Shown here: positions 5,831 through 64,000 of the stretch, one piece after another | How the letters are laid out: the number at the start of each line of letters is the position of its first letter | How positions within the stretch are numbered: position 1 is the first letter of the stretch | DNA from: an uncultured Actinomycetota bacterium | GTDB taxonomy: Bacteria; Actinomycetota; Thermoleophilia; RBG-16-64-13 | Assembly: GCA_963803925.1 (NCBI GenBank) | Contig: CAWDOM010000005.1 | Span: 5,088-69,087 of the forward strand | Direction of reading: 5' to 3' | DNA: 64,000 nt | Translations under genes and position numbers: made by a program | The notes under the pieces: model-generated | Told to the model about the DNA's origin: nothing | Databases searched by the model: none | The model's input: the letters and a program-made list of their open reading frames with translations, nothing else

Positions 5831-5896
5831 GGCCCCCGTCACGTATGGAATTGTCGCTAGTGGATGAGTGAGATAGAACTCCAATCCACGGCGTGT

Positions 5897-5920: not shown

Positions 5921-6037
5921 GTCAATGGGCGGGGTGTTCGTTCGCCGACCCGTCCACCACCGCAAGGGAGAGCGCATCCAGGCCCATGTCGTCCTCGCCG
6001 GCCCGCGCTTCTTCTCGTTCGCGTGGCGGAAGTGAGG

Positions 6038-11892: not shown

Positions 11893-11920
11893 TAGTTCCC
11901 CTCGTCTTCCGTCGAGTTCA

Positions 11921-13121: not shown

Positions 13122-13125
13122 CAGC

Positions 13126-13716
13126 ATGTCGGTGTATTCGCTCGCCCGCTGGATGAGTCTGATTGGGCTGCGCATCTTCTTCAGGATGAGAATCGCGTTC
13201 GGAGAGCGCATCCCGCCGAGCGGCCCCCTCGTCGTCGTGGCCAATCACGAGAGTCTGCTCGACGCGTTCGTCGTCGCCGCCACGCTGCACCGGCAGGCGA
13301 CCTTCCTTTCCGCGCCCCGTCTGTTCAGCCTTCCGGTGGTGGGCTCGTTCCTGCGCCGGGTGGGCGCCCTCCCCGCGTACGGTCAAGGCGATGACGTGGC
13401 CAGCCTTCGCGAAGCCATCCGCATCCTACAGAAAGGCGGCGTGGTGGTCGTGTTTCCTCAGGGAGGCATCGCACGCGCCCCGTTCTTCGGGGGAGCTGTC
13501 TTTCTGGCCATCAAGGGGCAAGCGCCGCTCGTTCCCATACGTATCCTGGGCACCAAATGCGCACTGCCTCCCGGACGCATGTGGCCGTCGTTGTTTGCCC
13601 CCATCACTGTGAGCGTGGGACCGCCGATACCGCCCGCTGACCTGTGCGGGCCCGGCACACGCACCGGTGTGGCCGTAGCTGAAGGCAGGCGACTACTCAC
13701 GGAGCTTCTGAGCTGA
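13126..13716 (+). CDS. lysophospholipid (1-acyl-sn-glycerol-3-phosphate) acyltransferase family protein
   Basis: HX4D motif (VVANHESLLD) and an FPQGG block; 196 aa. Confidence 0.8.
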   Translation: MSVYSLARWMSLIGLRIFFRMRIAFGERIPPSGPLVVVANHESLLDAFVVAATLHRQATFLSAPRLFSLPVVGSFLRRVGALPAYGQGDDVASLREAIRILQKGGVVVVFPQGGIARAPFFGGAVFLAIKGQAPLVPIRILGTKCALPPGRMWPSLFAPITVSVGPPIPPADLCGPGTRTGVAVAEGRRLLTELLS

Positions 13717-14624: not shown

Positions 14625-14764
14625 GGGAGTGACGAGAGCGACTTCTTCAGGAGACCGTTGCCATTCCCGTGCGCCAGCGACTAAGCTGAAGACCAACGAG
14701 TTCGCGACCGGTCTCGCGCCGCGTCGCGCAACTCCGGGGGCCGTCGAGAAGGCCGGACTTCGTC

Positions 14765-20200: not shown

Positions 20201-20336
20201 GGCCAGGCTCCTTTGGCTGACTTCAAATCAACGGAGCGACCGCGGCGCATTGAACAGCCGCGCCGCGGTCGGTAGCGGCAAGTCCGCGGCCACGGCCGCT
20301 CCTGTCTGTCACACTCTCGCGAGCCCCCGCTCCCGT

Positions 20337-31872: not shown

Positions 31873-31875
31873 GTG

Positions 31876-34642: not shown

Positions 34643-34844
34643 TCCGAAGACGGTAGCATGTCACCCCGCCGATGGAGGCGCGCGGCCAGGTCGTATCCTT
34701 CCGACGGCCGTGCGCACCTGGCACGATGCCGGTCTGACTCACGTTGGCCCTCCGGGCGGAGTTCCAGACTACCCTCCGCTTCCGTATCCCCCGTTCCAAG
34801 GTAAGACCCCATCGCTGCGGGCGGTCACCGACTAGGCCGGAGCC

Positions 34845-36905: not shown

Positions 36906-37048
36906 TACTATTTCTCCTTGTGCTTGCCCCGACAAAGGACGATTCTCGTGCAAACGATACACCTGCGGCTGCTTCGCCTCTCGTAGCCGGCATTTGTCTC
37001 TTCGTCGATGACGCACGGGACCGCTCATCCCCCAGAGGCCGCCGTGAT

Positions 37049-38416
37049 ATGGTCATGGCCAATCCGGACACGCCTGCGCCGCCGCGTAGTCGCATGGTGA
37101 ACACGGAGCAACGATCGAGGAGTCTGAAGGCGGTCCCAATGCGTTCATACCGCTGGGCGGTGCTGGCCATAGCGTTTTTCGGGGTGTTCGGCGTCATTGG
37201 CTTGGGACGCTTTGGCTACAGCGCCATCCTGCCTTCCATGCAGAAGGACCTGGGCATCAGCACCGCGGCCGCCGGCTCCCTGGCTTCGTGGAACCTCGGC
37301 GGGTACACCATCATGGCCGCGGTAGGCGGGTTCTTGGCTGCACGGCTGGGCGCCCGCAAAGTCGCGACCGCCGGAATAGCGATCACCGCCGCCGGGATGT
37401 TGCTCACGGGTCTCTCGAACGGCCTGTTCACCGCCTCAGCCGCCAGGCTCATCACCGGCTTGGGCAGCGGCATGGTTCTCGTGCCTTCGATAACCCTCAT
37501 GGCCGCTTGGTTCGAGACCCGGCGGCTCGGACTCGCTTCGGCCATAGTCAGCAGCGGAGCGGCGCTGGCCTTGGTAGTGGTCGGCCTCGTTGTGCCGCCG
37601 ATCATCAACAGCGGAGGCGATGACGGCTGGCGCCTGGCTTGGTACTTCTTCGCGGGAGCAGCCGCTTGCGTGGGGATAGCCTATGGCGCACTGCAGCGGA
37701 ATCGTCCGGAAGCGGCCGTTTCCAGGCGCTCGCGGCCGGCCGCGACCGAGCCGTCACGGCAGCCCGCCGCGTCCCTGGCTCGTCAGACCGTGTTGGACTT
37801 CAAGAGGGTCGTACGCTCCAGGTATGCGTGGCACCTGGGATTCGTCTACCTGCTCTACGGCTTCGCGTTCCTCATCTTTCAGACCTTCTTCCAGAAGAGA
37901 CTCACGAGCGATCTGGACTACACCAGCAAGACTGCCGGGTACCTCTTCTTGCTGATAGGCATCGGCGGGTTCTTGGGGGGCGCACTGTGGGGCAGCGTGT
38001 CCGACCGGGTCGGGCGTGGCCCGGCCCTCGCCCTGATGTTCATCATCATGGCCGTGGCGGCGGCGCTCTTCGCGTGGTGGCCTGCTACGCCGAGCTTGAT
38101 CATGTCGGCCTTCATTCTGGGGCTGGCGGGCATGGGCCTGCCCGGGGTCGTGGGGGCAGGATGCGGCGATCAGTTCGGTCCCGTGCTCGCCTCGGCGGCG
38201 CTGGGCCTGGTGACCATCTTCACGGGGGTGGGCATGGTGCTCGGTCCCTACCTCGCCGGCAGGCTGGCCGACGCCTCGGGTTCCCTCACCTATTCGTACA
38301 CGCTGGCCTGTGGCGTGTTCGTCCTCGGTGCGGTGGTGTCGTCACGGCTGCGCGAGACCGGATGGGCGGCAGCGGTCTGCAGGGTGCGGGAAGCTCCGGC
38401 TGCTAACCAGCCCTGA
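37049..38416 (+). CDS. MFS transporter (12 TMS)
   Basis: Hydrophobic ORF. Start at ATG 37049 or 37094; the 5' part of listed ORF 36920.. overlaps the divergent gene and is probably untranslated. Confidence 0.75.
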   Translation: MVMANPDTPAPPRSRMVNTEQRSRSLKAVPMRSYRWAVLAIAFFGVFGVIGLGRFGYSAILPSMQKDLGISTAAAGSLASWNLGGYTIMAAVGGFLAARLGARKVATAGIAITAAGMLLTGLSNGLFTASAARLITGLGSGMVLVPSITLMAAWFETRRLGLASAIVSSGAALALVVVGLVVPPIINSGGDDGWRLAWYFFAGAAACVGIAYGALQRNRPEAAVSRRSRPAATEPSRQPAASLARQTVLDFKRVVRSRYAWHLGFVYLLYGFAFLIFQTFFQKRLTSDLDYTSKTAGYLFLLIGIGGFLGGALWGSVSDRVGRGPALALMFIIMAVAAALFAWWPATPSLIMSAFILGLAGMGLPGVVGAGCGDQFGPVLASAALGLVTIFTGVGMVLGPYLAGRLADASGSLTYSYTLACGVFVLGAVVSSRLRETGWAAAVCRVREAPAANQP

Positions 38417-48174: not shown

Positions 48175-49245
48175 TCAGCGTATGTACAGGTCGGGCCGGC
48201 CGTGGGCGAACATCTCGTCGATGGGCATCGGCGTGGGCAGCTTGTAGAGCCGGGCCGCGTTGCCGCCCACGATCAGGTTGATCTGGTCTTGGGTCGCCAT
48301 GTTCAAGTCCTTGAGGCGATGGATCTGGTGGGTCGCCCAGCCATACCAGTCGGGGGAGTAGGGCAGCTCCCTGGGCTGGTTGTCCGCCGGCCAGGTCGTC
48401 CGGTTGTAGAACACCTGGTGCTCGTTGAGGTACTTGGCCGCCGGCCTCAGCGCGTGGTGCATCCAGATGCGGCTGCCGGTGTCGCCACCTCCCCAGATGA
48501 GGCGCTTGCAGGTGACGTTCTGGTCGTGGATGGCCATCTCGTAGAACTCGGCCTTCCAGTAGCCCGTCTCCAGGTAGACATTGGTGAACGAGCTGGCGAA
48601 TTGAATCGCTTCGCGCACCTCGTTCTCAGCCTGGCCGCCGCCGTGGTTGATGAGGACCTTGAGTTCCGGATACGTCGAGCAGGTCATGCCGAGCACGTCA
48701 AAGGCTTCGCTGGGGCGGATGCCGACCGTCATTGCACCGTAGCCCCGGTACTCGTGGAAGTGTACACACACGTCGTGCTTGATCGCCAACTCCGCGATCG
48801 CCGCCCACTCCTCGCAACGCTGCTGATAACTAGGCGGCTTGCGCATGGTGCCCATGGAGCCCGGCGCGAACTCGCCGATGCCCACAAAGACGTCCGGCTC
48901 GGCAGTGATGGCGTCATCGATCTCCTTGATGGCCGCCTCGATGGTCCATTGCGTCTCCCCGCGCGCGGCCTTGATGCGCTGCGTCGTGTCCATGCAGCAG
49001 GTGCGGAAACGGGTGGGGTGCTTCTTGACCATGGCCGCGTATAGCTCCTTGGTCGTCCCGGTGAAGCTCGGCAGCAGGACCCCCATGTCGATGCCGTAGG
49101 CATTCATGTCGAACACAGCCCAATCGGAGCTGTCGTCGGGCACGACCTCAGCGAAAATGCCGTGTGCCGGGTTGGACTCTGGAGCGTGCGCATCCTTCTT
49201 GCCCGAATGGATGTGACCGTCTACGACCCATCTGCCGATCTTCAT
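48175..49245 (-). CDS. Amidohydro_2 (ACMSD/LigW/LigI-type TIM-barrel metal hydrolase or decarboxylase), paralogue 1, intact
   Basis: AAGGAGA upstream. Segments: VVDGHIH, YGIDMGVLLPS, GIGEFAPG, HFHEY, VYLETGYW. Confidence 0.8.
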   Translation of the reverse strand: MKIGRWVVDGHIHSGKKDAHAPESNPAHGIFAEVVPDDSSDWAVFDMNAYGIDMGVLLPSFTGTTKELYAAMVKKHPTRFRTCCMDTTQRIKAARGETQWTIEAAIKEIDDAITAEPDVFVGIGEFAPGSMGTMRKPPSYQQRCEEWAAIAELAIKHDVCVHFHEYRGYGAMTVGIRPSEAFDVLGMTCSTYPELKVLINHGGGQAENEVREAIQFASSFTNVYLETGYWKAEFYEMAIHDQNVTCKRLIWGGGDTGSRIWMHHALRPAAKYLNEHQVFYNRTTWPADNQPRELPYSPDWYGWATHQIHRLKDLNMATQDQINLIVGGNAARLYKLPTPMPIDEMFAHGRPDLYIR

Positions 49246-49289
49246 GCTGGTCTCCTTTGCGTTGCGCGTGCCGGTTGCGGGACGCTCCG

Positions 49290-50394
49290 TCAGCGTATGT
49301 ACAGGTCAGGCCGCCCGTGGGCGAACATCTCGTCGATGGGCATCGGGGTGGGCAGCTTGTAGAGCCGGGCCGCGTTGCCGCCGACGATCAGGTTGATCTG
49401 GTCTTGGGTCGCGAGGTTCAGATCCTTCAGGCGGTGGATCTGGTGGGTGGCCCAGCCGTACCAGTCGGGCAGGTAGGGCAGCTCCTCGGGCTGGTTGTCG
49501 GCAGGCCAGGTCGTCCGGTTGAAAAGCACTTGGTGCTCGTTGAGATACTTGGCCGCCGGCCTCAGCGCATGGTGCATCCAGATGCGGCTACCCGTGTCGC
49601 CCGCCTCCCCAGATGAGGCGCTTGCAGGTGACGTTCTGGTCGTGGATGGCCATCTCGTAGTGCTCGGCTTTCCAGTAGCCGGTTTCGAGATATACGTTGG
49701 GGAAGGAGCTCGCGAACTGCATCGCTTCGCGTATCTCGTCTTCTGACTGGCCGCCGCCATGGTTGATGAGCACCTTGCAGCTCCGGGTAGGCGCAGCAGG
49801 TCATGCCGAGCACGTCGAACGCTTCGCTGGGGCGAATGCCCATGCGCATGGCCCCGTACCCTCCGTACTCGTGGAAGTGCACGCACACGTTGTGCTTGAT
49901 CGCCAGCTCGGCGATCGCCGACCATTCGTCCAGACCCGCTGCTCGTAGCTCGGCGGTCTGCGGACGGTGCCCATGCACCCCGGAGCGAACTCGCCGATTC
50001 CCACGAACACGTCGGGCTCGGCGGTAACGGCCTCGTCGATCTCCTTGATGGCCGCCTCAATGGTCCATTCGGTTTCGCCCCGGGCGGCCTTGATTCGCTG
50101 CGTCGTATCCATGATGCAGGTGCGAAAGCGGTCGGGGCGCTTCTTCACCATGTCGCCGTAGAGTTCTTTGGTCGTGCCGGTGAAGCTCGGCAGAAGGATT
50201 CCCATGTCGATGCCGTAGGCGTCCATGTCGAAGACGGCCCAGTCGGAGCTGTCGACACCGATGACCTCTCCCCCGGCGAAGGTCGGCAGCTTCGCCTTCG
50301 CGGCGGGTGTGTCCTCGCTGCCGGCCTGCGGCGCCTTGTGGTCCTTCTTGCCGCAATGGATGTGACCGTCAACGACGAATCTACCGATCTTCAT
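49290..50394 (-). pseudogene. Amidohydro_2 paralogue 2, at least 3 frameshifts
   Basis: MKIGRFVVDGHIHCGKKD... (inside ORF 49801..50871), then ORFs 49562..49978, 49588..49773 and 49290..50060. GAGGAGGGA upstream of the ATG at 50394. Confidence 0.8.
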
Positions 50395-50422
50395 CCCAGT
50401 CCCTCCTCTCTTCAGCAGGCTC

Positions 50423-51137
50423 CTAGACCCCGAGGTACGCCTTCTTGACGATGTCGTTGCGGGCCACGTCTCGCGGCCGGGCCCTCCAGAACGATGGACC
50501 CCACCTCCAACACGTACGCCCTGTCGCTCAGGGCAAGGGCCATGGTCGCGTTCTGCTCCACGAGGAGCACGCTCAGTCCTTGCCTGCGGATCATCGACGA
50601 TGATCTGCGCGACCATCTCGACCATGATCGGCGACAGACCCATGCTCGGCTCGTCCATGAGAAGCAGCTTCGGCTTGCCCATGAGCGCCCGGGCGACCGC
50701 CAGCATCTGCTGCTCGCCACCGCTCAGGCTTTCGGCCAACTGCTTGCCCCGTTCCTTGAGAACCGGGAAGTGGTCGTATATGTCGTCCAGGTCTCGCCGG
50801 ACCTCAGCCTTGTCCTTGCGGAGGTAGGCACCCATGCGCAGGTTGTCGGTGACCGTCATCGGGCCGAACACGATCCTGCCTTCGGGAACGTGACCGATGC
50901 CCTTCTTGACCAGCTGCGTGACCGGGAAGCCGATCTACGCGCTCGCCGTCGAACGGGATCTGACCCCCGATTCGATGTACTTGAGGGCGGAGATGCTTCG
51001 TGAGGAGCGTGGTCTTGCCCGCCCCATTCGCTCCGATGAGCGCGACTACCTCCCCCTCGGCCACGTTCAGGCTGATGCCTTTCGAGCGCCTGGGCCTTAC
51101 CGTAGTTGACCACCAGGTCCTTTATCTCAAGCAGCAT
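50423..51137 (-). pseudogene. branched-chain-amino-acid-type ABC transporter ATPase (LivF-like), multiple frameshifts
   Basis: Segments: MLLEIKDLVVNYGKAQAL; GEVVALIGANGAGKTTLL; RSISALKYIESG; QIPFDGERV; IGFPVTQLVKKGIGHVPEGRIVFGPMTVTDNLRMGAY; LSGGEQQMLAVARALMGKPKLLLMDEPS; ends ..VARNDIVKKAYLGV. Confidence 0.75.
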
Positions 51138-51905
51138 CGAAGGTCCCCTTGCCGAGGTAGGCGGCGCAGACTTCACGATCGTTGCACACCGTCTGGGCGT
51201 CTCCCTCGGCTATCTTCTCGCCGTAGTTCAGCACCACTATCCTGTCGCAGACGTCGATCACCACCCTCATGTGATGCTCCACGAGCATCACGGTGATGCC
51301 CCGCTCGCGGATCTTGCGGATGATCTGAACCATCACCTTCGATCTCCGTCGGGTTCATGCCGGTGACCGGCTCGTCGAGGAGCAGGAGGCGAGGATCGGC
51401 GGCGAGCGTGATGCCCACGCTCAGCAGCCGCTGGTGCCCGTGCGAGCAGGTTGGCCGCCAGTTCGTCCTTGAGATGGGTGAGCCGTACGAAGTCGAGAAT
51501 CTCCAGGGCCTCTGTCTTGAAGGCCGCCTCTTCGGCCCGCGCCGTCTTCGTGTAGAAGAAGCTTTTCGTGAGACCCACGGAGCGGTTGCGGTGGAAACCG
51601 ACGATGACGTTCTCGAGCGCCGAGATGTTGTCGAACAGCACTGAGTGCTGGAACAGCCGGGCGACACCGCGCTTCGCGACCGCAAATGCCGGCACGCCTA
51701 CCAGGCTGCTCCCCTCAAAGAGAATCTCGCCCGTGGTCGGCTTCTGAAAGCCGCTGATCATGGTGAAGACGGTGGACTTACCCGCTCCGTTGGGTCCGAT
51801 GAGTCCCATGATCTCGCCCTCATTGACGTCCATGTCAAGGTCTTTGACCGCGGATAGTCCGCCGAACCGCTTGGTAAGGCCCTTGGTTTCCAGGATCACG
51901 CTCAT
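51127..51905 (-). pseudogene. ABC transporter ATPase (LivG-like), 2-3 frameshifts
   Basis: Segments: MSVILETKGLTKRFGGLSAVKDLDMDVNEGEIMGLIGPNGAGKST; SHGHQRLLSVGITLAADPRLLLLDEPVTGMNP; GITVMLVEHHMRVV. Confidence 0.75.
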
Positions 51906-51908
51906 GAC

Positions 51909-52991
51909 TCAGACCCCGATTCCGGCCCGTTGGGGTCGACGGCCGTCTGCGCGCCATCCGTGCCGATCACAGTCGGTACGGGCGGCGGCCGGCGCTTTTC
52001 GTCGGAAGCGGAATCCGCAGGCCCTGGCGTATAGATCGGCGACGTCGGAGGCTTTGTGGCCCCGAAAGATCCCCATGATTCCTTGGGGAATGAAGATGAG
52101 GATGAGGATGATGATCGCGCCCGTGATCATCGGCTCGAAGCCCTTGGTAACCCTGAGCGCCTCGGGCACGACGGTCAACACTCCGGCCCCGATGATCGGG
52201 CCGAGTATCGGAGCGGCCACACCCCCCAGTATGGCGTACATCTGGATGTAGATGACCTTGAACGGCCCGTACGACTCCGGCATGATGTTGGTCGAGTAGT
52301 GGGCGAAGAAGATGCCCATCAACGCCGCCATCGCGGAGACGATCACGAAGCCGAGCAGCCGGTAGCGAAACGGATTGATGCCCACGGATTGAGCCAGGTC
52401 GTTGCTGAGGCCCATCGCCCGCCAGACCCGTCCCGTCCACGCCCGGTACAGGGCAAGGATCACCGAGACCACTATCACAGCGAAGACGAGCAGCAGGTAG
52501 TAGTACGACTGTGTCGACGCGAAGACGATGCGCGAGCCACCCGGCAGAGGGATCTCGCTGACGGGCGGGATGCGAATGAGGCCCACGTGCCCCCCGAAGA
52601 CCTTGAAGGTGCCGAAGATCAGCGGCACGATGAAGGCGAAGATCAGGCTGGGCATGATGAAGCCAAGCCCCGAATACCGGACGATTATCGCGCCAAAGAT
52701 CACGGCGACGCAGGCCGCGATGACGAGCGACGCGGGTAGCGCCACCCAGAAGTTGAGACCCAGCTTGAGGGTCAGCATCCCCGATGAGTACGCCCCTATC
52801 CCCCAGAACCCGGCTATGGACATGTTGAGCAGGCCGGCCCGCAACAGGACGATAAACGTCATCGCCAGGACGGCGTTCATCATTATCTGGATGAGAAGGT
52901 TCATATAGTAGTCGTTGCCGATGAACTGGGGCAGGGCCGCGACCACCAGGAACAACACGACCGCCGGTATCCACTTGATGCGTCTAGACAC
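51909..52991 (-). CDS. ABC permease (LivM-like)
   Basis: 360-aa polytopic ORF. The C-terminal ~50 aa are atypical and basic, so a terminal frame error is possible. Confidence 0.75.
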   Translation of the reverse strand: MSRRIKWIPAVVLFLVVAALPQFIGNDYYMNLLIQIMMNAVLAMTFIVLLRAGLLNMSIAGFWGIGAYSSGMLTLKLGLNFWVALPASLVIAACVAVIFGAIIVRYSGLGFIMPSLIFAFIVPLIFGTFKVFGGHVGLIRIPPVSEIPLPGGSRIVFASTQSYYYLLLVFAVIVVSVILALYRAWTGRVWRAMGLSNDLAQSVGINPFRYRLLGFVIVSAMAALMGIFFAHYSTNIMPESYGPFKVIYIQMYAILGGVAAPILGPIIGAGVLTVVPEALRVTKGFEPMITGAIIILILIFIPQGIMGIFRGHKASDVADLYARACGFRFRRKAPAAARTDCDRHGWRADGRRPQRAGIGV

Positions 52992-53868
52992 GCCCGATCT
53001 CCTCGATGTTCTTGCCCAAGATCCCGCCGGGCTTGAACAGCAGAATGATTAGAATGACCACGAAGAACAGGATCTGCGCCTGGCCGCTCCCGACGAAGTA
53101 CTGCCCGTAGCTCAGAACCATCCCAAAGACGAGCCCGCCGAGAATTGCGCCCACCATGCTTCCCACGCCACCTAGCATGACGACGAGCATGACCAGGAAC
53201 CCGTTCGATCCCATGCCGACTTCGACCCCGAAGATGGGCGCCATGATCCCCCCGGCAAACCCCGCTAGAGCGCAGCCGATGGTGACCGCGATGAGGAACA
53301 TGCGGTCGGCGTTGACTCCCTGGAGAGTCGCGACATCGGCCCTGAAGGAGACGGCGCGCATCGCCCGGCCGCTTCGGGTCTTTCGCAGCAGGACGTGCAG
53401 GGCCGCCAACACGGCGGCGCTGATTCCAATGACGACCGCCTTCTCGGTCGGGATCCGGACGCCGAGGACGTCTATCACCGACGAAAAGACGGTGGGCACG
53501 CTCCTCGAGGAGGTGCCGAACACGAGCAGAGCGGCTTGACCGAGGATCAGCATCAGTCCCACGCCGGCGATGATGTTCGTAAGGAATTGGTTCTTCCGGA
53601 ATTGCAGTGGCCGGAACACCAACAAATAGCTGAGGCCGCCGAGAATCGCGGCGGCGATGGTGGCGACCACGACCGCGGGGAAGTAGTTGACTTTGATCTC
53701 GACCTGCAGGTACCAGACGCTGAAAGCCCCGAGCATGTAGAAGGAGCCAAAAGCGATGAAGATGATATTGGGGACAGCCATCACCAGGTTGAAGCCCGAG
53801 GACATGAGCATGTACACGACACCCATGGATAGGCCATCAACGAAGAGCTGGATAAGGGTCCTTCCCAC
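52984..53868 (-). CDS. ABC permease (LivH-like)
   Basis: 294-aa polytopic ORF that overlaps livM-like by 8 nt. Confidence 0.8.
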   Translation of the reverse strand: MGRTLIQLFVDGLSMGVVYMLMSSGFNLVMAVPNIIFIAFGSFYMLGAFSVWYLQVEIKVNYFPAVVVATIAAAILGGLSYLLVFRPLQFRKNQFLTNIIAGVGLMLILGQAALLVFGTSSRSVPTVFSSVIDVLGVRIPTEKAVVIGISAAVLAALHVLLRKTRSGRAMRAVSFRADVATLQGVNADRMFLIAVTIGCALAGFAGGIMAPIFGVEVGMGSNGFLVMLVVMLGGVGSMVGAILGGLVFGMVLSYGQYFVGSGQAQILFFVVILIILLFKPGGILGKNIEEIGRV

Positions 53869-53963
53869 AGGCGTCTACCTCCCGGGCATGCTGCCGACGA
53901 CTAACGTGGCGTTTGAAGCTGGAGCCCGGAAGGTAGGCATCTTCCGGGCTCCAGCGGCGGCTG

Positions 53964-55309
53964 TTAGGCCCAGCCGAAGGTCTTCTTGTTGAATTCGAAC
54001 GCCTGGTCGAGAGAAACCTCGTCCACGACCTTCCATTCGCCGTTCTCGACGATGCCCATGGTCGCTCCAAAGAGCGAGTCGACGCACTGAGCGTTCCCCA
54101 GGTCGGGCCGGGGGACCATCCGGCAGACGCCGTACGCGCCTTCGAACTCGAGGCCACCGTGGATGAGATCGGCGACCTTGGTAGCCTCGAGCGTGCCTGC
54201 CTTCTGCAGCGCCGCCTTCAGCAGATACCAGCTGCTCACGTGCAGCACGGCCGGAAAGTCCCATTTTCCCTGCGCAGCCGTATAGAGATCCTTCAGCTTC
54301 TTGGCTTCGGCGGGCGGGTTCGGCAGGTCCTGCTGGCCCCAGCACGAGGCAATGCCCTCATGGTTCTCGATCGGCACGACCAGCGTCGCCGAACCGGGCG
54401 AGAATCCGACCGTGATCCACTTGGGACCGGTGAAGCCTGCCTGGCGCATCGCCTTGAAGAGCTGGCCGTCGGAGACGGGACCGCCGGCGCAGGTTGAGAA
54501 CGTTTCGCCGCCGGAATCGACCAGCGTGGTCGCGATAGCGCTGAAGTCGGTCGTGCCGCCCGGGTAGAGGACTTCCTTCACCACTTCCTGGCCCCAGGCC
54601 TTCGCCAGCATCACGACCTTCTTGGCTTCCTCGTTGCCCTGCAGGTTGTCGGGATGCGAGGCCATGACCTTCTTGATGTTGGGCCATTTCTGCGTGCACC
54701 AGCCCCAGATGACGGCGGGCTGCAGGTTCAGGTAGCCGGCGTTGAAGGTGAGCTTGTTGACCGGCTTGAGAATCTCGGGCGAGGGACTGACGCTGACGAC
54801 GAGCTTGCCGGCCTGCTCGGTGAGCGGCTGCCAGTAGTCGGTGCTCTCGTCGCCCATTATGAACTCGACTTTGTCTTCATTGAGAAGCCGCTGAACCGCC
54901 GAGCGGCTGGTCTCCGAATCGCGCTTGCCGTCATACATGATGACGTTGACCTCGTAGGCCTTGTCACCAACCTTGAGACCTCCGCTTCGCGTTGAGGTCG
55001 GGCATGTAGGCCTCGATCTGATGCTGCCACATGACGTGCAGCGGAAAGGAATAGTCGAGGACCATGCCGATTTTGAGCTTCTCCATGCCGGCGCGCCACC
55101 GACGTGGTCGCGCCACCCGCGGTCGTGGTGGGGCCGGAGGCCGTGGTGCTGGACCCTGTCTCGTCGCCACAGGCAGCCAGAACCCCGCCCAGCCCGCCGG
55201 CGAGCCCGATGGCCGCGCCCGCCGCGCCGGCGATTTTGAGGAACTCACGCCGACTTACCGATCTGCTCTCGTTCTCTTCACTCAGCTTGCGATCTGGTGT
55301 CTCGTTCAT
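53964..55309 (-). pseudogene. LivK-type substrate-binding lipoprotein with Tat-type signal, frameshifted near the N-terminus
   Basis: MNETPDRKLSEENESRSVSRREFLKIAGAAGAAIGLAGGLGGVLAAC; then GMEKLKIGMVLDYSFPLHVMWQHQIEAYMPDLNAK; then ORF 53964..54938. Confidence 0.75.
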
Positions 55310-55401
55310 CACATCTCCCCTTGGTTCGGCCCTTCACCTTGTCCAATCGGTAGTGCAGTTGCCCACGTCCGCTCAACCATTCGTCACCCCCGACATCTGA
55401 A

Positions 55402-56507
55402 CTAGTCCTTCCTGTACTTGGGCGGTATCCATGTGTCGGTCTTGTCGGCTTCGGGAACCGATTCGAGCCAGTGAATGCCCCAGTGGTCCGGGCGGCCGCT
55501 CATGAACATGCGGTCGTGCGGCACAGGCAGGTTCCAGAGCCTCACGGCATTGCCGCCGAGGATCAGGTTGATCTCGTCCTGCGTGATGTAGTCGCGCAGC
55601 TTGTCGATCTGATGAAGCTCCCATCCCCACCAATCGGCCTGGTAGGTCGGCACCTTCGGCCAATAGTGCATCGCGGTGGTGAAGCTCGACGGATCGCCTC
55701 CCGGGTTCGCGACTATGTACTGCGGCACGTGCCCATAATCGGCGCCCCAGATGAGACTGGCTGATCAGGGTGTTCGGGTCTTTCAGCGCGTAGAGGTAGT
55801 ACTCTGCCGGCCAGTTGCCGGTCTCCAGGTAGATGTTCCTGCCCGACGCGACGGCCAGCGCCTTGCGAATGAGCGGGGCGCCCTGGATGTACCCGCCGAT
55901 CGAGTAGCCGCCGTGGCATAGAACGATCGGCACCTCGGGATACTCGCGCGAGATGCGGGCGAGAAGCTGGTAGGGGTCCCAGTAGTACGGCATGGTGAAG
56001 TCGTGAAAGTCGACGGTCACCCCGTACTTCTCGGCCAGTTCCATGAACACCCGGTATTCGCCCAGCCGTTCCTCGAACGTGTACATCTTCTTGGGATCCC
56101 AGTCCATCGGGATGAACTCGCCGATGCCGATGAACATGCCCGTCTTCAGCGCGTCTTCGACTTCCTGGGCGGCGGCGTCCAGGGACCAGGTCGCTTCGCC
56201 CCTGGCGATCTTGAGCTTAGTGGTCTGGTCGGCGCAGAAGGCCCTGAACTTGTCGGGGTACTTCCTGACCAGGTCGGCCTGATACTCGTTTGTGGTGCCC
56301 TGCATGCTCGGCTTGAGCAGGCACATGTCGACGCCGTATCGCTCCATGTCGTAGAGCGTCAGCGGGGAGTTGTCGTAGTGCACCACTTCTCCCGCGTCCG
56401 GCGTCATGGGCAGATCCGGTCCAGTCGTCTCCGGCATCGCCCTTGGGCTTGTACAAGGTGGTGATGTGAGCGTGGGTCTCAACCACGAAACGGCCTGCAG
56501 CTCTCAT
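55402..56507 (-). pseudogene. Amidohydro_2 paralogue 3, 2 frameshifts
   Basis: GAAGGAGGA upstream of the ATG at 56507 gives MRAAGRFVVETHAHITTLYKPKG. Then ORF 55373..56482 (YDMERYGVDMCLLKPS...GIGEFIP...IYLETGNW) and ORF 55402..55728. Confidence 0.8.
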
Positions 56508-56710: not shown

Positions 56711-57548
56711 TTGGCGAAGATGGCGACAGCTGATGACGAGCAAGTAGATTCCGCGAGGGGTACGCAATTGGTCCAGTCTCTGTCGCGGGGGCTGGGCATT
56801 CTCAGTCAGTTCACGGCCGAATCGCGCAGTCTCAGCCTACCTGATCTTGCGCGTCGCACGGGCCTTCATCGGGCGACCGCGTACCGCTTCATCCGCACCC
56901 TTGAGGTCGAAGGCTTCGTCACCTATGACCCCGACTCGGCCCTCTACAGCGTCGGACCGGCCTGGGCGGCCGCCCTCTACTCACTGGGCAGCGAGACTGC
57001 CCTGACCGAGATTCTGAACAGCGACATGCAGGCGCTATCTGAGGCTCTCAGCGAGACGTGCACCCTGTCGGTGAGACGGGGCGATCAGGTTCAGATAATC
57101 AATGTCATCGACTCGTCGAGGCTCTTTCGCCCCCGGCTGCCGAACAGCTCGCTGGTGGCGCTAAATGAGTTTTGGAACGTGAATTCTAAGATCCACCTGG
57201 CGTTCGCCAGCGAAGATACGCGCCGGCGCATGCTCGCGATTCCGGCCGTCAGGTACACCCAAAACACGCTGACAGACCGAAAGGCCATCGCGGCGTGCCT
57301 GGACAGGGTCGCCACCGACCGAGTCGCGTGTGACTGCGAGGAGCACGACCTGGAGGTCTGCGCGATCGCTGTACCGGTCTTCGAGAAGGGCAACGTGGCG
57401 CTTGCCCTCGGGGTTGTGACCCCTGTCGATCGGTTCGGCCGAGAGCGATGTCAAACGGTTCAAGCGAGAGCTGGCTGCGGCCGCCGAGGCGATGGGAGCC
57501 CGGCTGGAAAAGGCCGCGTACGCTTGGAGGGAAGCCGTAGTCAAATAG
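56711..57548 (+). pseudogene. IclR-family regulator; frameshift in the last ~40 codons
   Basis: LVQSLSRGLGILSQF...LSLPDLARRTGLHRATAYRFIRTLEVEGFV. The corrected tail ...ESDVKRFKRELAAAAEAMGARLEKAAYAWREAVVK ends at the TAG at 57546-57548. Start is TTG 56711 or ATG 56720. Confidence 0.8.
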
Positions 57549-57560
57549 GAGGACCGAGCC

Positions 57561-59559
57561 ATGCCAGGGACCAGACGGGCGGCAAGCGCGCGGTCATGGC
57601 CATACCCTACTGAGTACGGGCAGGAGACGAGGACGACGTATGACGTCCTCGTGATAGGAGGCGGCATCGCCGGATGCCACGCCGCGATCAAGCGCAGCTC
57701 GGCGGGGAGCGCGGGTGGCCATCCTCGACAAGGGCGCCGTAATCCGTAGCGGGTCCGGAGGCGGAGGAGTCGATCACTGGCACGCTGCCTGCCTCAATCC
57801 ATGTAGCCACGTGACGCCCGAGGATCTAGTTCAAGTGGTGCAGAAGACGCCGTACCGGCAGACGACCGAGTACGGCAACGCCATCACATGCTACATCCTC
57901 GCCAAGGAGAGCTATGACACCCTGCTCGACCTTGAGCGTATGGGGGTGACCGTCCGAGATGTCGACGACGAGTTCGTCGGCTCCGACTTTCGCGACGAGG
58001 AAACAAAGCTCCTCTTCGCTTACGACTACGAGGGGCAGGCATTGCATCCGGGTGCAGGGTTGGGAGGTGAAGCCGGCGCTTCATCGAGAATTGAAGCGGC
58101 TGAAGGTCGACGTCTACGATCGCGTGATGGGAACGAGGCTGCTAACGGAAGACGGCGCGCAGGGCGGGCGAGTAGTGGGCGCCACCGGGCTAAACGTCCG
58201 TACCGGCAGGTTCTACACCTTCCTGGCCGGGTCGACCGTGCTGGCGACTGCCCGGCCGTTCCGCTTGTGGGTCTTCTCGACAGAACTGCAGGGCCTCGCG
58301 TCCAGCTTCTTCGATCCCAACTGCGCCGGCGACGGCTGCGCCATGGCCTGGAAGGCCGGCGCTGCACTCACGCTTCTCGAGCAGAGCTTCCCGTTCGGCG
58401 GAGCCTTCCGCCACGTCCCCTACGGCACCGGCAACGCGCACAACTCCTGGTACGCGTGCAACATCGTCGACAGCAAGGGTCGGGAGGTGCCGTGGGTCGA
58501 CCGCGACGGCCGGCCCCTGCACAGCTCGCTGAGCGCTACCGGCCCGCGCCCGGGCAGAAGTTCTTCCTGTCGTGCCCCGGCGTACCCCATGACTATCCAG
58601 GGCCCGCGGCTGATCCCCGACCTGCCTCAGCGCATACGAAAGGGCGAGTTCGAGCTTCCCCTCTACGCCGACCTGCCCAGCATGCCGCCCGACGAGCGGC
58701 GCGTGATCTGCGGACTCGATGCTCGCCCACGAGGGCAACACTAGGATCGCCGATCTACCAGGTGTACGGCCAGGCCGGCTTCGACCCCGACAAGGACATG
58801 CTGCAGGCGAACATGCTGCTCTCCAGACGGGTACATCTTCCTCCCTGGTGGGCGACAGTGCCTGCCGCCCGCTCAATGGCGAGAGGTCGGCCTGCTGACC
58901 AACGGGGGCGGCGTGGTCTTCGATTGGGACCTGCGGACAACCCTGCCCGGGCTGTACGCTGCGGGCGAGCAGCTGGCCTGCGGCGCGAACCACGCGGCTT
59001 CGGCAACAACCGGCCGCTACGCGGGTCGGAAGGCGGCGGAGAGCGCCGCGCTGGCGCCCCGCCCCGAGGCGAGTGAGGAGCAGATCGAAGCGGAGAAGCG
59101 CCGAGTGTTCGCGCCCATCGGGCGCTCGGGACGGTTCGGTTGGAAAGAGGTTCAGGCTGGTCTCTGCCGCATCATGCAGGACTACTGCGGCGAATACCGC
59201 AGCAAGGAGACGCTCGAGGTGGGGCTGCGAGTGGCTGGAAAGCATCGAGAAGAGCGAACTTGCCTCCGTCGGGGCCCGCAACCCGCACGAACTGATGCGC
59301 ACGCTCGAAGTCGGCGTGCGGCTCGAAGTAGGACGGGCGATGATACATGCCTCACTCGCGCGCCGGGCCAGTAGCCAGGCCCTGGGTTTCAAGAGAATCG
59401 ACTACCCGGAGCTCGATCCGCCCGATTGGGACAAGCTGGTCACAATTCGAAGCGAAGGCGGCGAAGTGGTCACGGGCGACCTGGATTGCGACTACCCACT
59501 GCTTGCCCCCCTTCGCCCCCGACTGTGAGCAGAACTACCAGGCGCACTGCGCCCTCTAA
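57561..59559 (+). pseudogene. FAD flavoprotein of the fumarate-reductase / APS-reductase-alpha (AprA-like) superfamily, many frameshifts
   Basis: AGGAGG upstream. Segments: YDVLVIGGGIAGCHAAIK; AILDKGAVIRSGSGGGGVDHWH; RVVGATGLNVRTGRFYTFLAGSTVLATA; NCAGDGCAMAWKAGA; LPGLYAAGEQLACGANHAASATTGRYAG; FKRIDYPELDPPDW. The probable end is ..APFAPDCEQNYQAHCAL at 59559 after correcting a C-run. Confidence 0.65.
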
Positions 59560-59574
59560 GGAGGCGAGCCGGCC

Positions 59575-59913
59575 ATGGACGCCCGGATGACGAGCAACCC
59601 CGAGACTCCCTGCCAGGCGATCACCTTCGACCCGGCGCTTTGCACCGGCTGCAACACCTGCGCCGACGTCTGTCGTTCGGACGTGATGGTACCAAGCGAG
59701 ATCAAGGGCGAGCCACCTATCCTTCTCTACCCCGACGAATGCTGGTTCTGCGGCTGCTGCGTCGGCCACTGTCCGACACCCGGGGCGATCTCGATGAACC
59801 ACCCTCTCAGCCAACGGGCGGCCTGGAAGAGAAAGGACACCGGGGAGCTATTCCGCATCGGCATGAAGAACCCACCGGCGCCGCATACGCGTCCGCCGGT
59901 CGGCGGTTGGTGA
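59575..59913 (+). CDS. 2x[4Fe-4S] ferredoxin with C-terminal extension (AprB-like)
   Basis: AAGGAGG upstream. Motifs: CTGCNTCADVCRSDVM and CWFCGCCVGHCP. Tail: WKRKDTGELFRIGMKNPP. Confidence 0.7.
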   Translation: MDARMTSNPETPCQAITFDPALCTGCNTCADVCRSDVMVPSEIKGEPPILLYPDECWFCGCCVGHCPTPGAISMNHPLSQRAAWKRKDTGELFRIGMKNPPAPHTRPPVGGW

Positions 59914-59976
59914 TGTTCGGCCATTCAAGTTGGATCGAAACAGCACGTGAGAGGTACGGAGCGAGGAGGCGTTGAG

Positions 59977-60341
59977 ATGGCGGGCAAGCTCTGCAGAGTG
60001 ACCAAGGACAGCCCCTGGCTGACCGAGATCCCCAACCACGAAGGCTATCGCCTGACCCCCATGGTGAGTCCGGAACTGTGCCCAGGCGCGCAGATCGAGT
60101 TCTACGTCGGAGAGTTCAACCCCGACGGAGGCAGGGCGCTCGACCACGTCCACGACGCGAAGATCAACGTCTTCTACGTGATGTCAGGACGGGCCACCGC
60201 CAGGGTGGGTGACGAGAGTTCACAGCCTCGAGCCGGGCGACGCCCTATGGGTGCCGAAGGGCGAGACCCACGATTTCAACGTCGTGGGAGGCAGAGACCT
60301 TCCGGGTGATAGCTATCTTCGCGCCGGCGCGCGCGACCTGA
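59977..60341 (+). pseudogene. cupin-domain protein, 2 frameshifts
   Basis: GAGGAGG upstream of the ATG at 59977. Segments: ...ALDHVHDAKINVFYVMSGRATARVGDE / VHSLEPGDALWVPKGETHDFNVVGG / ETFRVIAIFAPARAT. Confidence 0.6.
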
Positions 60342-60354
60342 AAGGAGAGAGTCC

Positions 60355-63014
60355 GTGACGAAGCCGATCGAGACGCCAGAAGAAGAGCCCAAAGAGGAGG
60401 CCGCGGTCAAGACGGTCGTGCGTGACATCAGCTGGCTCGGAGCGCCGTGGGGTGCGAACGCCTGCATGGTCGACGTCAGGGATGGCAAGATCCTTCGAAT
60501 CCGGCCCACCCGCTTCTACGACAAGTACACCAAGGAGCAGGTCAAGCCCTGGGTGATGCACGCCCGGGGCAAGACCTTCGAGCCAGGCGACAAGACCCTC
60601 CCCCCTCCTCTGTCGATCGCCTACAAGCGGCGCATCTACTCCCCGGCACGCATCCGCTACCCCATGAAGCGTGTCGATTTCGACCCGAACGGCGCCCCCG
60701 GCTCGCCGGCGCGGGTGGGCGCAACATCCAGAACCGGGGCAAGAGCAAGTACGTGCGCATCAGTTGGGATGAAGCGCTGGACATCATCACCAGCGAGATG
60801 CTCCGCGTCAAAGACAAGTACGGGCCGACCGCGATTCTCTATCAGAACGACCAGCACGGCGAGAACAAGGTCGTGCACGGGCCACATGGTTGCGGTCGCA
60901 AGTTGCTGCGCATGTTCGGCGGCTTTACCCACCAGGTTCGCAACGCCGACAGCTGGGAAGGCTGGTGGTGGGGAGCCAAGCACGTGTGGGGCTGCGAATG
61001 GCTGGGCCAGCAGAAACCCCAGCAGAACCTGCTCTTCGACATAGCCAGGAACGCCGAGCTACTCCTATTCTGGGGTTGCGACCAGGAGACGACCACCTGG
61101 GGATGGGGCGGGCAACTCTGCAGCCGCCTGAGCTACTGGTGGACCGAACTGGGAATCAAGCAGATCTACATCGCTCCCGACTTGAACTACGCCGCGGCCG
61201 TCCACGCCGACCGCTGGATCCCCGTCTTGCCGAACACCGACGCCGCGCTCTACCTTGCCATCGCGTACCGGTGGTTTCAGAGAGGCACGTATGACAAGGA
61301 GTACCTCGCCACCCACGCCTATGGTGTCGACAAGTTCGAGGCATACGTGACGGGTGAAGACGATGGCGTGGTGAAGAGCCCGGAGTGGGCGGAACCGATA
61401 ACGGGCGTTCCCGCACGGGTGATCAAAGCCCTGGCGGACGAATGGGCCTCCAAGCGCACCACGGTGGTCATCGGCAACGGGGGCCCAGGCATCCGCGGCC
61501 CGTACTCCACCGAGCCCGCCCGCCTGCAGGCCATCTGCCTCGGCATGCAGGGCCTAGGCAAGCCAGGCGTCAACCAGGCAAAGATGATCGAATGGGCTCT
61601 TGACCTAGATCCGGAATACCAGTCGGCCCCCGCGCCATCGGTACGGACCAGCTTCGGGGCCGCTGCGCGAGGCGACGGACCGCCGGAGTTCGGCCGCGAT
61701 TCGCTTGTGCCAAAGACGCTTGTTCCCAAACTCATCCTCGACGGCGAAGGCGAGTGGTACGGCAACCGGTATGGCATGCGCAGCCCTCGGGAGGAGCAGT
61801 TCATCAAGTACAAGTATCCGGCCGACGGGTGCTCCAAGATCCACATGATCTGGACCGACTCCCCCTCCTGGATCACGTGCTGGAACGACGGCAATAACTA
61901 CATCCGCGCGATGCGCGACCAGTCGATCGAGTTCATCTTCTGCCAGCATCCGTGGATCGAAAACGACGCGCTCTTCGCGGACGTGCTCCTACCCGTCAAC
62001 ACCAAGCTCGAAGAGGATGACATCGGCAGCGACGTCTTCAGCGGGCAGATGGACCTGCTCTACCCGCAGCCCCGCTGCATCGAGCCTCTCGGCGAGTCGT
62101 TCAGCGACTACGAGATCGTGTGCAAGATAGCCGAGCGACTCGGCATGCTGGAGGAGTACACCGACGGTAAGACGATTCCGGAGCTCATCAGAATGGGCTA
62201 CGAGGCCTCCGGTTCGGCGGACAAGGTCACGTGGGAGGAGTTGAACGAGAAGGGCTACTACGTCATCCCGCCCAACCCCGAATGGGAAAAGATCCCTCCG
62301 GGACTCCTCGAGTTCTACCAGGACCCAGAGAAGCACCCCCTGAACACGCCGACGGGCAAGCTGGAGTTCTATTCCACCGGACTGGCGGAGCACTTTCCCG
62401 ACGACGAGGAACGTCCGCCCGTGCCGAAGTGGATACCGCGGGGCCCCTCGCACGAGGAGACCCTGGGTACCGAGCGGAGCAAGAAGTATCCGCTGCTGGT
62501 CGTCAGCAACCACCCGCGCTGGGGCGTGCACTCTCAGCATGACGACGTCACCTGGCTGCGGGAGATCGAGACCTGCAAGATACGGGGCTCAGACGGCTAC
62601 CAGTACCACCCACTCTGGATGAACCCGGTCGACGCCGCCGCCCGCGATATCAGGCACGGCGATGTGGTCGGCATCTTCAACGAGCGCGGCACCGTGCTCG
62701 CCGGAGCCTACGTCACCCAGCGCATCGTGCCCGGCGCGGTGGGCATCGACCACGGGGCCAAGTACGACCCCATAGTGCCGGGCGAGATCGACCGGGGCGG
62801 GGTCATCAACACCATCGTGCCCCGCAACACCACGTCGCAGAACACGGTGGGAATGGCGGTGTCGGGCTTCCTGGTCCAGGTAGAGAAGGCCGATCTGGAG
62901 ACCTTGCGCGCCAAGTACCCAGAACCGTTCGCGAGGGAATGTCACGTGACTGCCGGTCCTTGCGTGGCCGGTGTGATGGAGGAAGACACCTACTATGGAG
63001 GTTCTACGGCATGA
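60355..63014 (+). pseudogene. molybdopterin oxidoreductase large subunit, transhydroxylase (AthL)/RhL-type paralogue 2; one frameshift near 60705; no adjacent BthL-type subunit
   Basis: GTG at 60355 after AAGGAGAG. ORF 60355..61044 (…RIRYPMKRVDFDPNGAPG) switches at a C5 run into ORF 60447..63014 (GGRNIQNRGKSKYVRISWDEALDIITSEM...NADSWEGWWWGAKHVWG...FADVLLPVNTKLEEDDI...). The N-terminus has no Cys cluster and no Tat signal. Confidence 0.8.
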
Positions 63015-64000
63015 GAAGGAATATCGCCCGGTTCGTGGTCGATACGCATTGTCACATCACCACGCTCTATCAGCCTGCGAACGAGGCCGGGTGGGAGAAG
63101 GTCGAGAACGAGGAGTGGACCGGCCTGGCTGACGAGCTCGCTCCCTTCGACAACTGTTTCCTCACCATGTACGACATGGACCGCTACGGGGTGGACATGG
63201 CCATTCTCCTCCCCAGCATCTTCGGGACGCTCAACGAGACTCAGGCCAAGTTGGTCAAGCGCTTTCCCGACCGGTTTCGCGCCTGCTGCAGCGACCAGAA
63301 GACCGTGCTCGACGCCATACGGGGCAAAACGCCGTGGACGTTCAAGGCGGCGCTCGAGGAGGTCGAACAGGCGCTCAAGACCGGCTGGTTCGTCGGCATC
63401 GGCGAATTCTCGCCCGGGTCCTTCTCGCGGTGGTGCCAGATACCCGGAGGCGAAGGCAAAGTGAGCCTTGAGCAGAGGGTGGAAGAATATGCGGCGCTGT
63501 GCGAGCTCGCGGTCAAGTACGACGTGCCGGTGCTGAGCCACGACCAGTTCTTGCACCCCCGAGACGGCGACTGGACGCTCACCGAGTTGCTCGCGAAGGT
63601 CTCGGAGATGAACCCCAAGGCGAAGATCCTCCAGACGCACGGCTGCGTGGAAGACGAGTGGGAACGGGGTCAGGACGCCATCCGCGACATGTATACCGTG
63701 GTCGCCTCCTTGGACAACGTCTACATGGAGACAGGGGGATGGAGCGAGCGGCAGTTCGAGATAGCCTTCGAGGTCGGCGTGACGGCCAATCACCTCACCT
63801 GGGGCCACGACTACGGCAACGTGCCCCAGCACATCGTGCGCCGCGGCGTGGGGAAATGGGGACCCGAACCAAAGGAATTCGAGTACCGCACGACCATGTC
63901 ACGCATGATGTTCGGCTACGAAGACTGGCCCGCCGTGCCGACCTATCAGCCCGACTTCTACGGGTGGGGTCTGCGGACCGTCGACAGAGTAGGCGACTGG
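63011..64000 (+). CDS. Amidohydro_2 paralogue 4 (partial, runs off the right edge)
   Basis: The ATG at 63011 overlaps the Mo-subunit stop (ATGA). Hand translation gives MRRNIARFVVDTHCHITTLYQPANEAGWEKV...YDMDRYGVDMAILLPS...GIGEFSPG...VYMETGGW..., open to position 64000. It is not in the ORF track because there is no stop in the window. Confidence 0.8.
   Translation, partial: MRRNIARFVVDTHCHITTLYQPANEAGWEKVENEEWTGLADELAPFDNCFLTMYDMDRYGVDMAILLPSIFGTLNETQAKLVKRFPDRFRACCSDQKTVLDAIRGKTPWTFKAALEEVEQALKTGWFVGIGEFSPGSFSRWCQIPGGEGKVSLEQRVEEYAALCELAVKYDVPVLSHDQFLHPRDGDWTLTELLAKVSEMNPKAKILQTHGCVEDEWERGQDAIRDMYTVVASLDNVYMETGGWSERQFEIAFEVGVTANHLTWGHDYGNVPQHIVRRGVGKWGPEPKEFEYRTTMSRMMFGYEDWPAVPTYQPDFYGWGLRTVDRVGDW

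Follow-up and report, generated by a model that had tools for sequence, protein, structure and literature searches.

We examined a 64,000-nt stretch of DNA from an uncultured Actinomycetota bacterium of the Thermoleophilia (positions 5,088 to 69,087 of contig CAWDOM010000005.1, assembly GCA_963803925.1; G+C content, 64%), hereafter termed the window. Its distal end carries a molybdenum (Mo) subunit gene, the second copy in the window (copy 2), within a gene cluster. The original prediction had placed five genes there, encoding a flavin adenine dinucleotide (FAD) protein, a ferredoxin (Fdx), a cupin, the Mo subunit, and an amidohydrolase. All five were recovered at these positions on the + strand by joining reading frames and by Pfam matches, and a regulator gene precedes them:

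56711-57548, + strand: IclR-family regulator, first gene of the unit, located by tblastn with the IclR genes of contigs L004 and L005 (HTH_IclR and IclR_C in those)
57561-59559, + strand: FAD flavoprotein of the AprA/fumarate-reductase fold, ~660 aa, with at least five frame changes, rebuilt from three frames and assigned by Pfam
59575-59913, + strand: 2x[4Fe-4S] ferredoxin, 112 aa, intact open reading frame with Fer4 family matches
59977-60341, + strand: single-domain cupin, ~120 aa, with two frame changes (Pfam Cupin_2)
60355-63014, + strand: Mo subunit (copy 2), ~887 aa, with one frame change near 60700 (Pfam AhtL-like_1st, Molybdopterin, and Molydop_binding)
63011-64000, + strand, cut by the window end: Amidohydro_2 protein AMH-2 (PF04909)

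An AGGAGG-type ribosome-binding site (RBS) was found before every start of the five genes. The true stop codon of the IclR gene, TAG at 57546-57548, lies behind a frame change, and the ATG of the flavoprotein gene follows 12 nt on. The subsequent gaps are 15 nt (flavoprotein to Fdx), 63 nt (Fdx to cupin), and 13 nt (cupin to Mo), and the Mo stop and AMH-2 start share ATGA at 63011-63014, an overlap also present in contig L012. The RBS-spaced junctions and the overlap were thus as predicted, and no terminator-like sites were found on the + strand inside the unit. A database protein of 413 aa, P0241, is 100% identical over all 330 AMH-2 residues in the window, so the end of the AMH-2 gene is expected near position 64252.

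The frame changes, at least five in 2 kb of the flavoprotein gene, two in the cupin gene, and one in the Mo gene, could mean that the locus is decaying and that these three genes are pseudogenes in this organism. However, frame errors occur window-wide, including in copy 1 of the Mo subunit, in the neighboring amidohydrolase gene AMH-1, and in the IclR gene, and such scattering is typical of a noisy or unpolished long-read assembly. Furthermore, the reading frames between the errors are 75-85% identical to intact orthologues, and the amidohydrolase matches the intact protein P0241 throughout. Because the errors are spread over the whole window, pseudogenes were rejected as the main reading, and we regard decay of the locus as very improbable. 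The closest relatives of the DNA are long-read soil metagenome-assembled genomes (MAGs) with names of the 'MFD...bin' type.

We compared copy 2 with solved structures and with NCBIfam models. Its best solved relative was AthL (4v4c_A; E=4e-134 using P0001, a homologue 85% identical), and the next-best match in the PDB was dimethyl sulfoxide (DMSO) reductase, at 250 bits. Copy 2 is 37.5% identical to AthL, compared with 57-63% for the AthL-type paralogues in related MAGs, and PF21423 scored 33 bits (cut-off, 27). No NCBIfam cut-off was reached by copy 2; the scores were 324-336 bits for bisC_fam (cut-off, 1017.55) and 270 for torA (cut-off, 1465). Only one Cys is present within the first 120 residues, and copy 2 therefore lacks the FS0 motif. 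The other copy in the window is of the AthL/RhL type and, as had been proposed, has a BthL-type partner; both genes were confirmed by frame translations and tblastn:

~1954-4720, - strand: Mo subunit (copy 1), AthL/RhL type
~4950-5830, - strand: BthL-type poly-ferredoxin, upstream of copy 1

An additional coding stretch of ~110 aa (4720-5010, - strand) separates the BthL-type gene from the AthL-like portion of copy 1; it appears SCP2-like by eye and may represent either an N-terminal extension or a small gene of its own. A gene of the metallo-beta-lactamase (MBL) fold is located just upstream of the BthL-type gene (5857-6891, - strand); in L001, L002, and L006, too, the Mo gene is flanked by MBL-fold genes.

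The active sites were compared in an alignment of 113 sequences, including copy 2, 92 close relatives (at least 67% identical), and 19 AthL-type paralogues. His144, Asp174, Ser175 (the Mo ligand), and Trp176 are kept in copy 2 and all 92 close relatives. By contrast, Tyr404, Tyr560, Arg153, and Trp354, which are reported to bind the cosubstrate in the transhydroxylase crystal structure, are lost in the same sequences: both Tyr residues fall in deletions, Arg153 is replaced by Pro or Cys, and Trp354 is replaced by Gly. Tyr152 is likewise replaced, by Gly or Ala. All five residues are retained in 19 of the 19 AthL-type paralogues, and copy 1 keeps FYFPGYAEGG (Tyr404), NPGGYAEH (Tyr560), His144, and Asp174-Ser175-Trp176. 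The losses imply that copy 2 is probably not a transhydroxylase in the strict sense, and the label of a transhydroxylase-type subunit, originally given to copy 2, fits copy 1 only. Judged by its sequence, copy 2 is a Ser-ligated bis-molybdopterin guanine dinucleotide enzyme of a large AthL-like subfamily without a characterized member.

Two known groups resemble copy 2 in different respects. AthL/BthL of Pelobacter acidigallici (PDB 4v4c) and the resorcinol hydroxylase RhL/RhS share with it the AhtL-like first domain and the absence of an N-terminal iron-sulfur (Fe-S) motif, and AthL also shares the DSWEGW segment with the Ser175 Mo ligand and Asp174, as well as His144. AthL differs in the residues described above (Tyr404 and Tyr560 deleted, Arg153 Pro, Trp354 Gly, and Tyr152 Gly in copy 2), and AthL/BthL has a beta subunit, whereas copy 2 has no co-encoded BthL. 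BisC, TorA, and DorA, the Fe-S-free, Ser-type members of the DMSO-reductase family, are like copy 2 in having a lone Mo subunit with neither FS0 nor a poly-ferredoxin partner. Unlike them, copy 2 scores far below the family cut-offs, has the AhtL-like first domain, is predicted to be cytoplasmic (no twin-arginine translocation motif), and lies in a context of aromatic catabolism instead of S- or N-oxides.

To place copy 2 among its relatives, species-representative genomes were scanned, at least 520 stretches with a relative of the Mo subunit were found, and the best 79 of the 520 loci were kept. Most of these 79 belong to Thermoleophilia/Gaiellales and Chloroflexota; the remainder comprise a few Firmicutes and a single archaeal MAG. 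Neighboring genes were mapped by tblastn, and a tree of Mo subunits was built by neighbor joining. Copy 2 fell in a terminal clade of 21 Mo sequences, none of which has a BthL neighbor (0/21), compared with a BthL gene directly downstream in 74 of 90 relatives outside the clade; the closest BthL-linked relative is 76.7% identical to copy 2. In all 21 members, Arg153 is Pro and Trp354 is Gly, with D174-S175-W176 and H144 invariant. As a proxy for the DNA beyond the window end at 64000, we inspected 10 kb of downstream DNA in L012, where the amidohydrolase gene is the last of the operon and is followed by purL on the opposite strand; no BthL gene was found within these 10 kb. The proposal that copy 2 is without a BthL gene is therefore well founded, and a BthL gene just beyond position 64000 is not indicated by this proxy.

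A conventional alpha/beta enzyme could nevertheless be formed if the BthL-type subunit were encoded elsewhere in the genome, in which case the adjacent genes would be mere pathway partners. At least one BthL gene exists in this genome (~4950-5830), and related beta-less copies sit between Mo-BthL pairs in other MAGs (L021-L024, L027, L035, and L036). We also took the 347 columns whose conservation among 57 BthL-linked paralogues is at least 97%. In the beta-less clade, 333 of the 347 were kept and 14 were changed or relaxed, with 9 fixed differences and a loose cluster at window residues 416-477, so that no large surface looks freed from constraint, although this test is indirect because the interface coordinates of 4v4c were not used. 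On the other side, the one BthL gene seen within the window is the partner of the distant AthL-type copy, and the systematic loss of the beta gene across all 21 members, next to sister clades in which 74 of 90 have it directly downstream, suggests real independence. Taken together, we consider a BthL subunit supplied from elsewhere to be unlikely.

In the beta-less clade, a gene of the nitroreductase family (~190-235 aa) directly follows the Mo gene in L002, L014, L016, L019, and L020, in the slot that bthL occupies in the sister clades, and is found a few genes from the Mo gene in L001 and L018. Its product might serve as an alternative partner carrying flavin, or might just be one more enzyme of the pathway. 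Several of the beta-less Mo genes followed by it have no FAD/Fdx pair nearby. Among the BthL-linked relatives, Mo-BthL pairs also occur in gut Firmicutes (L080, L083, and L067, representing Ruthenibacterium lactatiformans, Flavonifractor sp., and an Eubacteriales MAG) and are 67-68% identical to the soil actinobacterial subfamily; such high identity across such distant phyla suggests horizontal transfer and conserved function. A Nitrososphaerales archaeon MAG (L079) carries two Mo-BthL pairs on its contig, which may reflect transfer or a binning error.

We next turned to the flavoprotein and the ferredoxin. The flavoprotein matched FAD_binding_2 (94.6-97.6 bits) and Succ_DH_flav_C (34.4-34.5 bits) and is 77-81% identical to its orthologues. 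An AlphaFold2 model of one orthologue, P0126, had a predicted local distance difference test score (pLDDT) of 74.5 and a predicted template modeling (TM) score of 0.82, with low confidence in the capping-domain loops. The top Foldseek matches of this model were the 3'-phosphoadenosine 5'-phosphosulfate (PAPS) reductase 8a8o and AprA (2fja/1jnr), with TM scores of 0.64-0.75 and ~20% identity, and fumarate reductases were close behind. No NCBIfam cut-off was reached by the flavoprotein; the best model, PRK08275, scored 193 bits against 587, and for aprA, the clean orthologue P0126 scored 81 bits where 641.75 are required. Placement inside a well-characterized, unrelated flavoprotein family, an outcome that would have spoken against the original prediction, was thus not found. 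The FAD-site motif is RSG, not RSH; the His of the RSH motif is the site of covalent FAD attachment in the flavoproteins of fumarate reductase and succinate dehydrogenase. The latter enzymes share FAD_binding_2 and Succ_DH_flav_C with the window protein and differ in the RSH motif, and no cut-off of their family models is reached. An invariant D-H-W-H motif (P0126 residues 72-75; window ~57770-57790) aligns with NAIN of 8a8o and may be a family-specific active-site signature. This family-invariant motif, together with the full capping domain, suggests a flavoprotein with its own active site.

The ferredoxin contains the CxxCxxCxxxC pattern twice (Cys23/26/29/33 and Cys56/59/62/66), followed by a conserved C-terminal extension of ~40 aa (WKRKDTGE.FRIGMKNPP...RPPVGGW). 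It had been described as having an AprB-like tail; in AprB, the C-terminal tail clasps the alpha subunit. The extension itself is conserved, but the aprB model aligns to the cluster core only and scored 24.4 bits against a cut-off of 135.65, so that the match lends no support to an AprB-like tail. A weak match to the beta subunit of PAPS reductase (8a8o_C) was also observed. The ferredoxin is probably the small subunit of the flavoprotein.

A metagenome survey yielded 80 loci with a flavoprotein 54-81% identical to that of the window. A homologue of the ferredoxin directly follows the flavoprotein gene in 47 of the 64 loci with room for it, and paralogous FAD/Fdx pairs often stand in tandem, two to four to an array (L001, 13839-21953; L002, 15819-22628; L134; L090). 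An orthologous Mo gene is present in only 3 of the 80 loci (L085, L087, and L094), or 2 of the 40 with adequate flank. Amidohydro_2 genes and ATP-binding cassette (ABC) transporters are recurrent neighbors of the pairs. These results indicate that the two genes form a tightly linked, autonomous unit of AprAB-like architecture, which is widespread and mostly without a Mo gene. The L001 array also holds a 554-aa protein combining Fer4 with a pyridine-nucleotide-disulfide-oxidoreductase domain, which could supply electrons from NAD(P)H.

AprAB and the archaeal AprAB-like PAPS reductase (1jnr, 2fja, and 8a8o) share with the pair the fold of the alpha subunit, a noncovalent, RSG-type FAD site, and a 2x[4Fe-4S] gene directly downstream. 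The pair differs from them in its low identity (~20%), in scores far below the aprA and aprB cut-offs, and in having DHWH in place of NAIN. Moreover, no sulfur-metabolism genes are nearby; the neighbors are IclR, ABC transporter, and amidohydrolase genes. We interpret the pair as a heterodimer of AprAB-like build whose active site is its own and differs from theirs. The proteins termed 'AprAB-like' by DiSCo have no beta tail and lie among sulfur-assimilation genes (PMC8477390), and this group was rejected as the identity of the pair for being tail-less and tied to sulfur assimilation. Another flavoprotein considered, from a paper on benzene degradation, is of the vanillyl-alcohol oxidase (VAO)/glycolate-oxidase type and not relevant here.

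We then compared the whole locus with related contigs. In the window, the IclR gene is transcribed divergently from AMH-1, and the region beyond AMH-1 has the same gene order as in L004, L005, and the P0125 contig, from which the Pfam calls were taken:

55373-56507, - strand: Amidohydro_2 paralogue AMH-1, part of the conserved locus core
48184-49245 and 49299-50391, - strand: two further Amidohydro_2 paralogues (tblastn)
within 48184-55312, - strand: Liv-type ABC transporter with two ATPases, two permeases, and a Peripla_BP_6 binding protein (tblastn)

The arrangement with AMH-1 divergent from IclR, FAD, Fdx, cupin, and Mo genes in this order was found in the window and in four other distinct contigs (L004, L011, L012, and L087; L085 is the same sequence as L012), so the expected recurrence of the gene order in other genomes was observed, here among several uncultured soil actinobacteria. 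L012 additionally carries AMH-2 downstream. In L009 and L094, the order is FAD, Fdx, AMH-2, and Mo. In L001, L002, and L006, the Mo gene, an MBL-fold gene, and AMH-2 are followed by two to four tandem FAD/Fdx pairs, and the nitroreductase-family gene is also present in L001 and L002. Compared with L012, Mo and AMH-2 are ~80-84% identical in every arrangement, whereas the flavoprotein is 78-84% identical in the cupin-containing arrangement and 64-70% identical in the others; the lower values fit either a faster rate or exchange of paralogues.

Other loci keep the upstream synteny without the Mo gene. In L005, the IclR, FAD, Fdx, and cupin genes are followed by toxin-antitoxin genes, and the flavoprotein is ~80-84% identical to those of L004 and L012. 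In the P0125 contig, the IclR, FAD, and Fdx genes are followed by genes on the opposite strand, and the flavoprotein is 78% identical. As Mo and AMH-2 are missing from these two loci, module presence varies among orthologous loci: only some of the orthologous FAD/Fdx(+cupin) operons include the Mo-AMH-2 module. Beside the FAD/Fdx pair, the P0125 contig also carries a chalcone-isomerase-like (Chalcone_N) and an FMN_red gene (12426-14323), which hints at flavonoid or polyphenol substrates.

These distributions bear on the central proposal of the original prediction, an electron path from Mo through the two [4Fe-4S] clusters to FAD. Here, the AprAB-like pair would replace BthL in a three-subunit phenol hydroxylase or dehydroxylase coupled to an external two-electron carrier. 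A FAD/Fdx pair is located within 6 kb of the Mo gene in 8 of the 21 members of the beta-less clade and in 0 of the 90 sequences elsewhere (Fisher p=4.6e-7, ignoring shared ancestry), so proximity is confined to the clade without BthL; because the association is phylogenetically clustered, the p-value overstates independence. The modules also stay close together in three gene orders, the genes are co-transcribed with RBS-spaced junctions, and an AprB-type ferredoxin, as in AprAB, has an outer cluster suited to electron exchange with a partner. By contrast, most FAD/Fdx pairs have no Mo gene, 13 of the 21 beta-less Mo genes have no pair nearby, and L005 and the P0125 contig retain FAD/Fdx without Mo, so that the gene distribution does not indicate such a path. 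In addition, the flavoprotein has the full size of an enzyme, an invariant motif of its own that resembles an active site, and paralogues arranged in tandem. We therefore judge the three-subunit enzyme to be quite improbable. As the downstream proxy, the recurrent gene order, and the family assignment of the flavoprotein did not go against it, the electron-chain idea is weakened only.

AMH-2 was characterized further. PF04909 scored 28.6 bits on the fragment in the window and 38.1 bits on the full-length L012 orthologue (gathering threshold, 26.4), and H13 and H15, the His residues of the N-terminal HxH metal motif, show almost no variation. No solved relatives were found by sequence, with either a single sequence or a profile. 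The AlphaFold2 model (pLDDT, 90.8) gave dihydroxybenzoate decarboxylase (4qro/3s4t), ACMSD, LigJ, IDCase, and LigY as top Foldseek matches, with TM scores of 0.43-0.58. With gamma-resorcylate decarboxylase, ACMSD, LigJ, IDCase, and LigY, AMH-2 shares PF04909, the HxH motif, and a TIM-barrel fold, as their neighbor in the Foldseek search; it differs in being only 12-16% identical and ~80 aa longer. AMH-2 adjoins the Mo gene in both gene orders and is also found beside FAD/Fdx pairs. A stand-alone homologue, 65% identical, lies with a MarR gene and a tripartite ATP-independent periplasmic (TRAP) transporter in the cultured Vibrio sp. RC27 (L165; GCA_054404255.1, 9103-14265), and this lone homologue suggests that AMH-2 works without the other modules. 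AMH-1 is 85-94% identical to its counterparts in L004, L005, L011, L012, and L087. Genes of both the AMH-1 and AMH-2 types neighbor FAD/Fdx pairs, and the clustered amidohydrolase group occurs in 14 of the 80 metagenome loci.

The cupin scored 44-54 bits with Cupin_2 and is restricted to the arrangement IclR, FAD, Fdx, and cupin. Its best solved relatives were quercetin 2,3-dioxygenases, a weak match (E=6e-8). Cupin_2 and His-containing motifs are shared with these enzymes, but the window protein is a single 120-aa domain, compared with a bicupin of ~337 aa. No published description of this combination of genes was found in the literature searched, and a paper on the phloroglucinol pathway makes no mention of an amidohydrolase or a cupin.

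Our preferred reading, which we hold with confidence only a little above even, is that the five genes encode separate enzymes of one modular, IclR-controlled catabolic operon for an imported phenolic (hydroxy-aromatic) carboxylate, such as a plant-type phenolic acid. The locus would be the promoter-distal part of this operon in an uncultured Thermoleophilia/Gaiellales actinobacterium, and the enzymes would be separate modules acting one after another. The Liv-type ABC system would take up the substrate. By analogy with the decarboxylases and the hydratase among the top structural matches, the Amidohydro_2 enzymes would carry out decarboxylation or hydration. The Mo enzyme would then alter the hydroxylation pattern of the resulting phenol, by water-dependent hydroxylation, dehydroxylation, or a shift of an OH group, and might either act by itself, as the Fe-S-free BisC, TorA, and DorA do, or pair with a BthL encoded at another site in the genome. 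The FAD/2x[4Fe-4S] enzyme would itself be a substrate oxidoreductase, for example reducing an enone tautomer or catalyzing the reverse, with electrons passing via its own ferredoxin subunit, and the cupin might isomerize or cleave a product. The beta-less Mo enzyme may thus need no electron handling, may rely on a BthL encoded elsewhere, or may use the neighboring flavoprotein.

Several points weigh against separate enzymes in a pathway. A complex would be as compatible as a pathway with the tight spacing and the single transcription unit, and a replaced redox partner would give the observed pattern of 8/21 versus 0/90. The proposed steps lean on remote fold resemblance (TM 0.43-0.58 for AMH-2 and ~20% identity for the flavoprotein), and all four enzyme families are without a characterized member. 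Given the many frame errors, some of the genes may also have decayed in this strain.

Redox genes abound in the remainder of the window. It encodes a further FAD_binding_2 protein, three FAD_binding_4 (VAO-type) proteins, and two Oxidored_FMN+Pyr_redox_2 proteins resembling enoate reductases (old yellow enzyme [OYE] type). Redox catabolic genes are located at 10441-12030, 14690-16072, 18272-20227, 30355-31875, 33131-34660, and 34947-37052, and binding proteins are also present. The presence of OYE-type reductases, VAO-type flavoproteins, and binding proteins fits a catabolic island.

Anaerobic turnover of polyphenols in soils, sediments, and guts is routinely deduced from genes with the annotation 'pyrogallol hydroxytransferase' (e.g., PMC4959651). 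The subfamily of copy 2 is very large, with at least 520 stretches in species-representative genomes, including those of Thermoleophilia, Chloroflexota, and the gut Firmicutes Flavonifractor and Ruthenibacterium. As the presumed cosubstrate residues are missing from all 92 close members, this label is probably wrong for them and, going by the alignment, probably for the subfamily. The locus also exposes two more families without a characterized member, namely AprAB-like flavoenzymes unrelated to sulfur metabolism and a remote Amidohydro_2 family. All parts come from known superfamilies, and none comes from a characterized family. Numbering thousands of proteins and unconnected with sulfur metabolism, the AprAB-like family might constitute a novel class of flavoenzymes, coupled to ferredoxin and acting with Amidohydro_2 enzymes in the reduction or oxidation of phenolic rings. 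If the electron chain from Mo to FAD were true, it would represent a new subunit architecture for the DMSO-reductase family. The recurring, shuffled neighborhoods provide concrete gene sets for expression and substrate screening.

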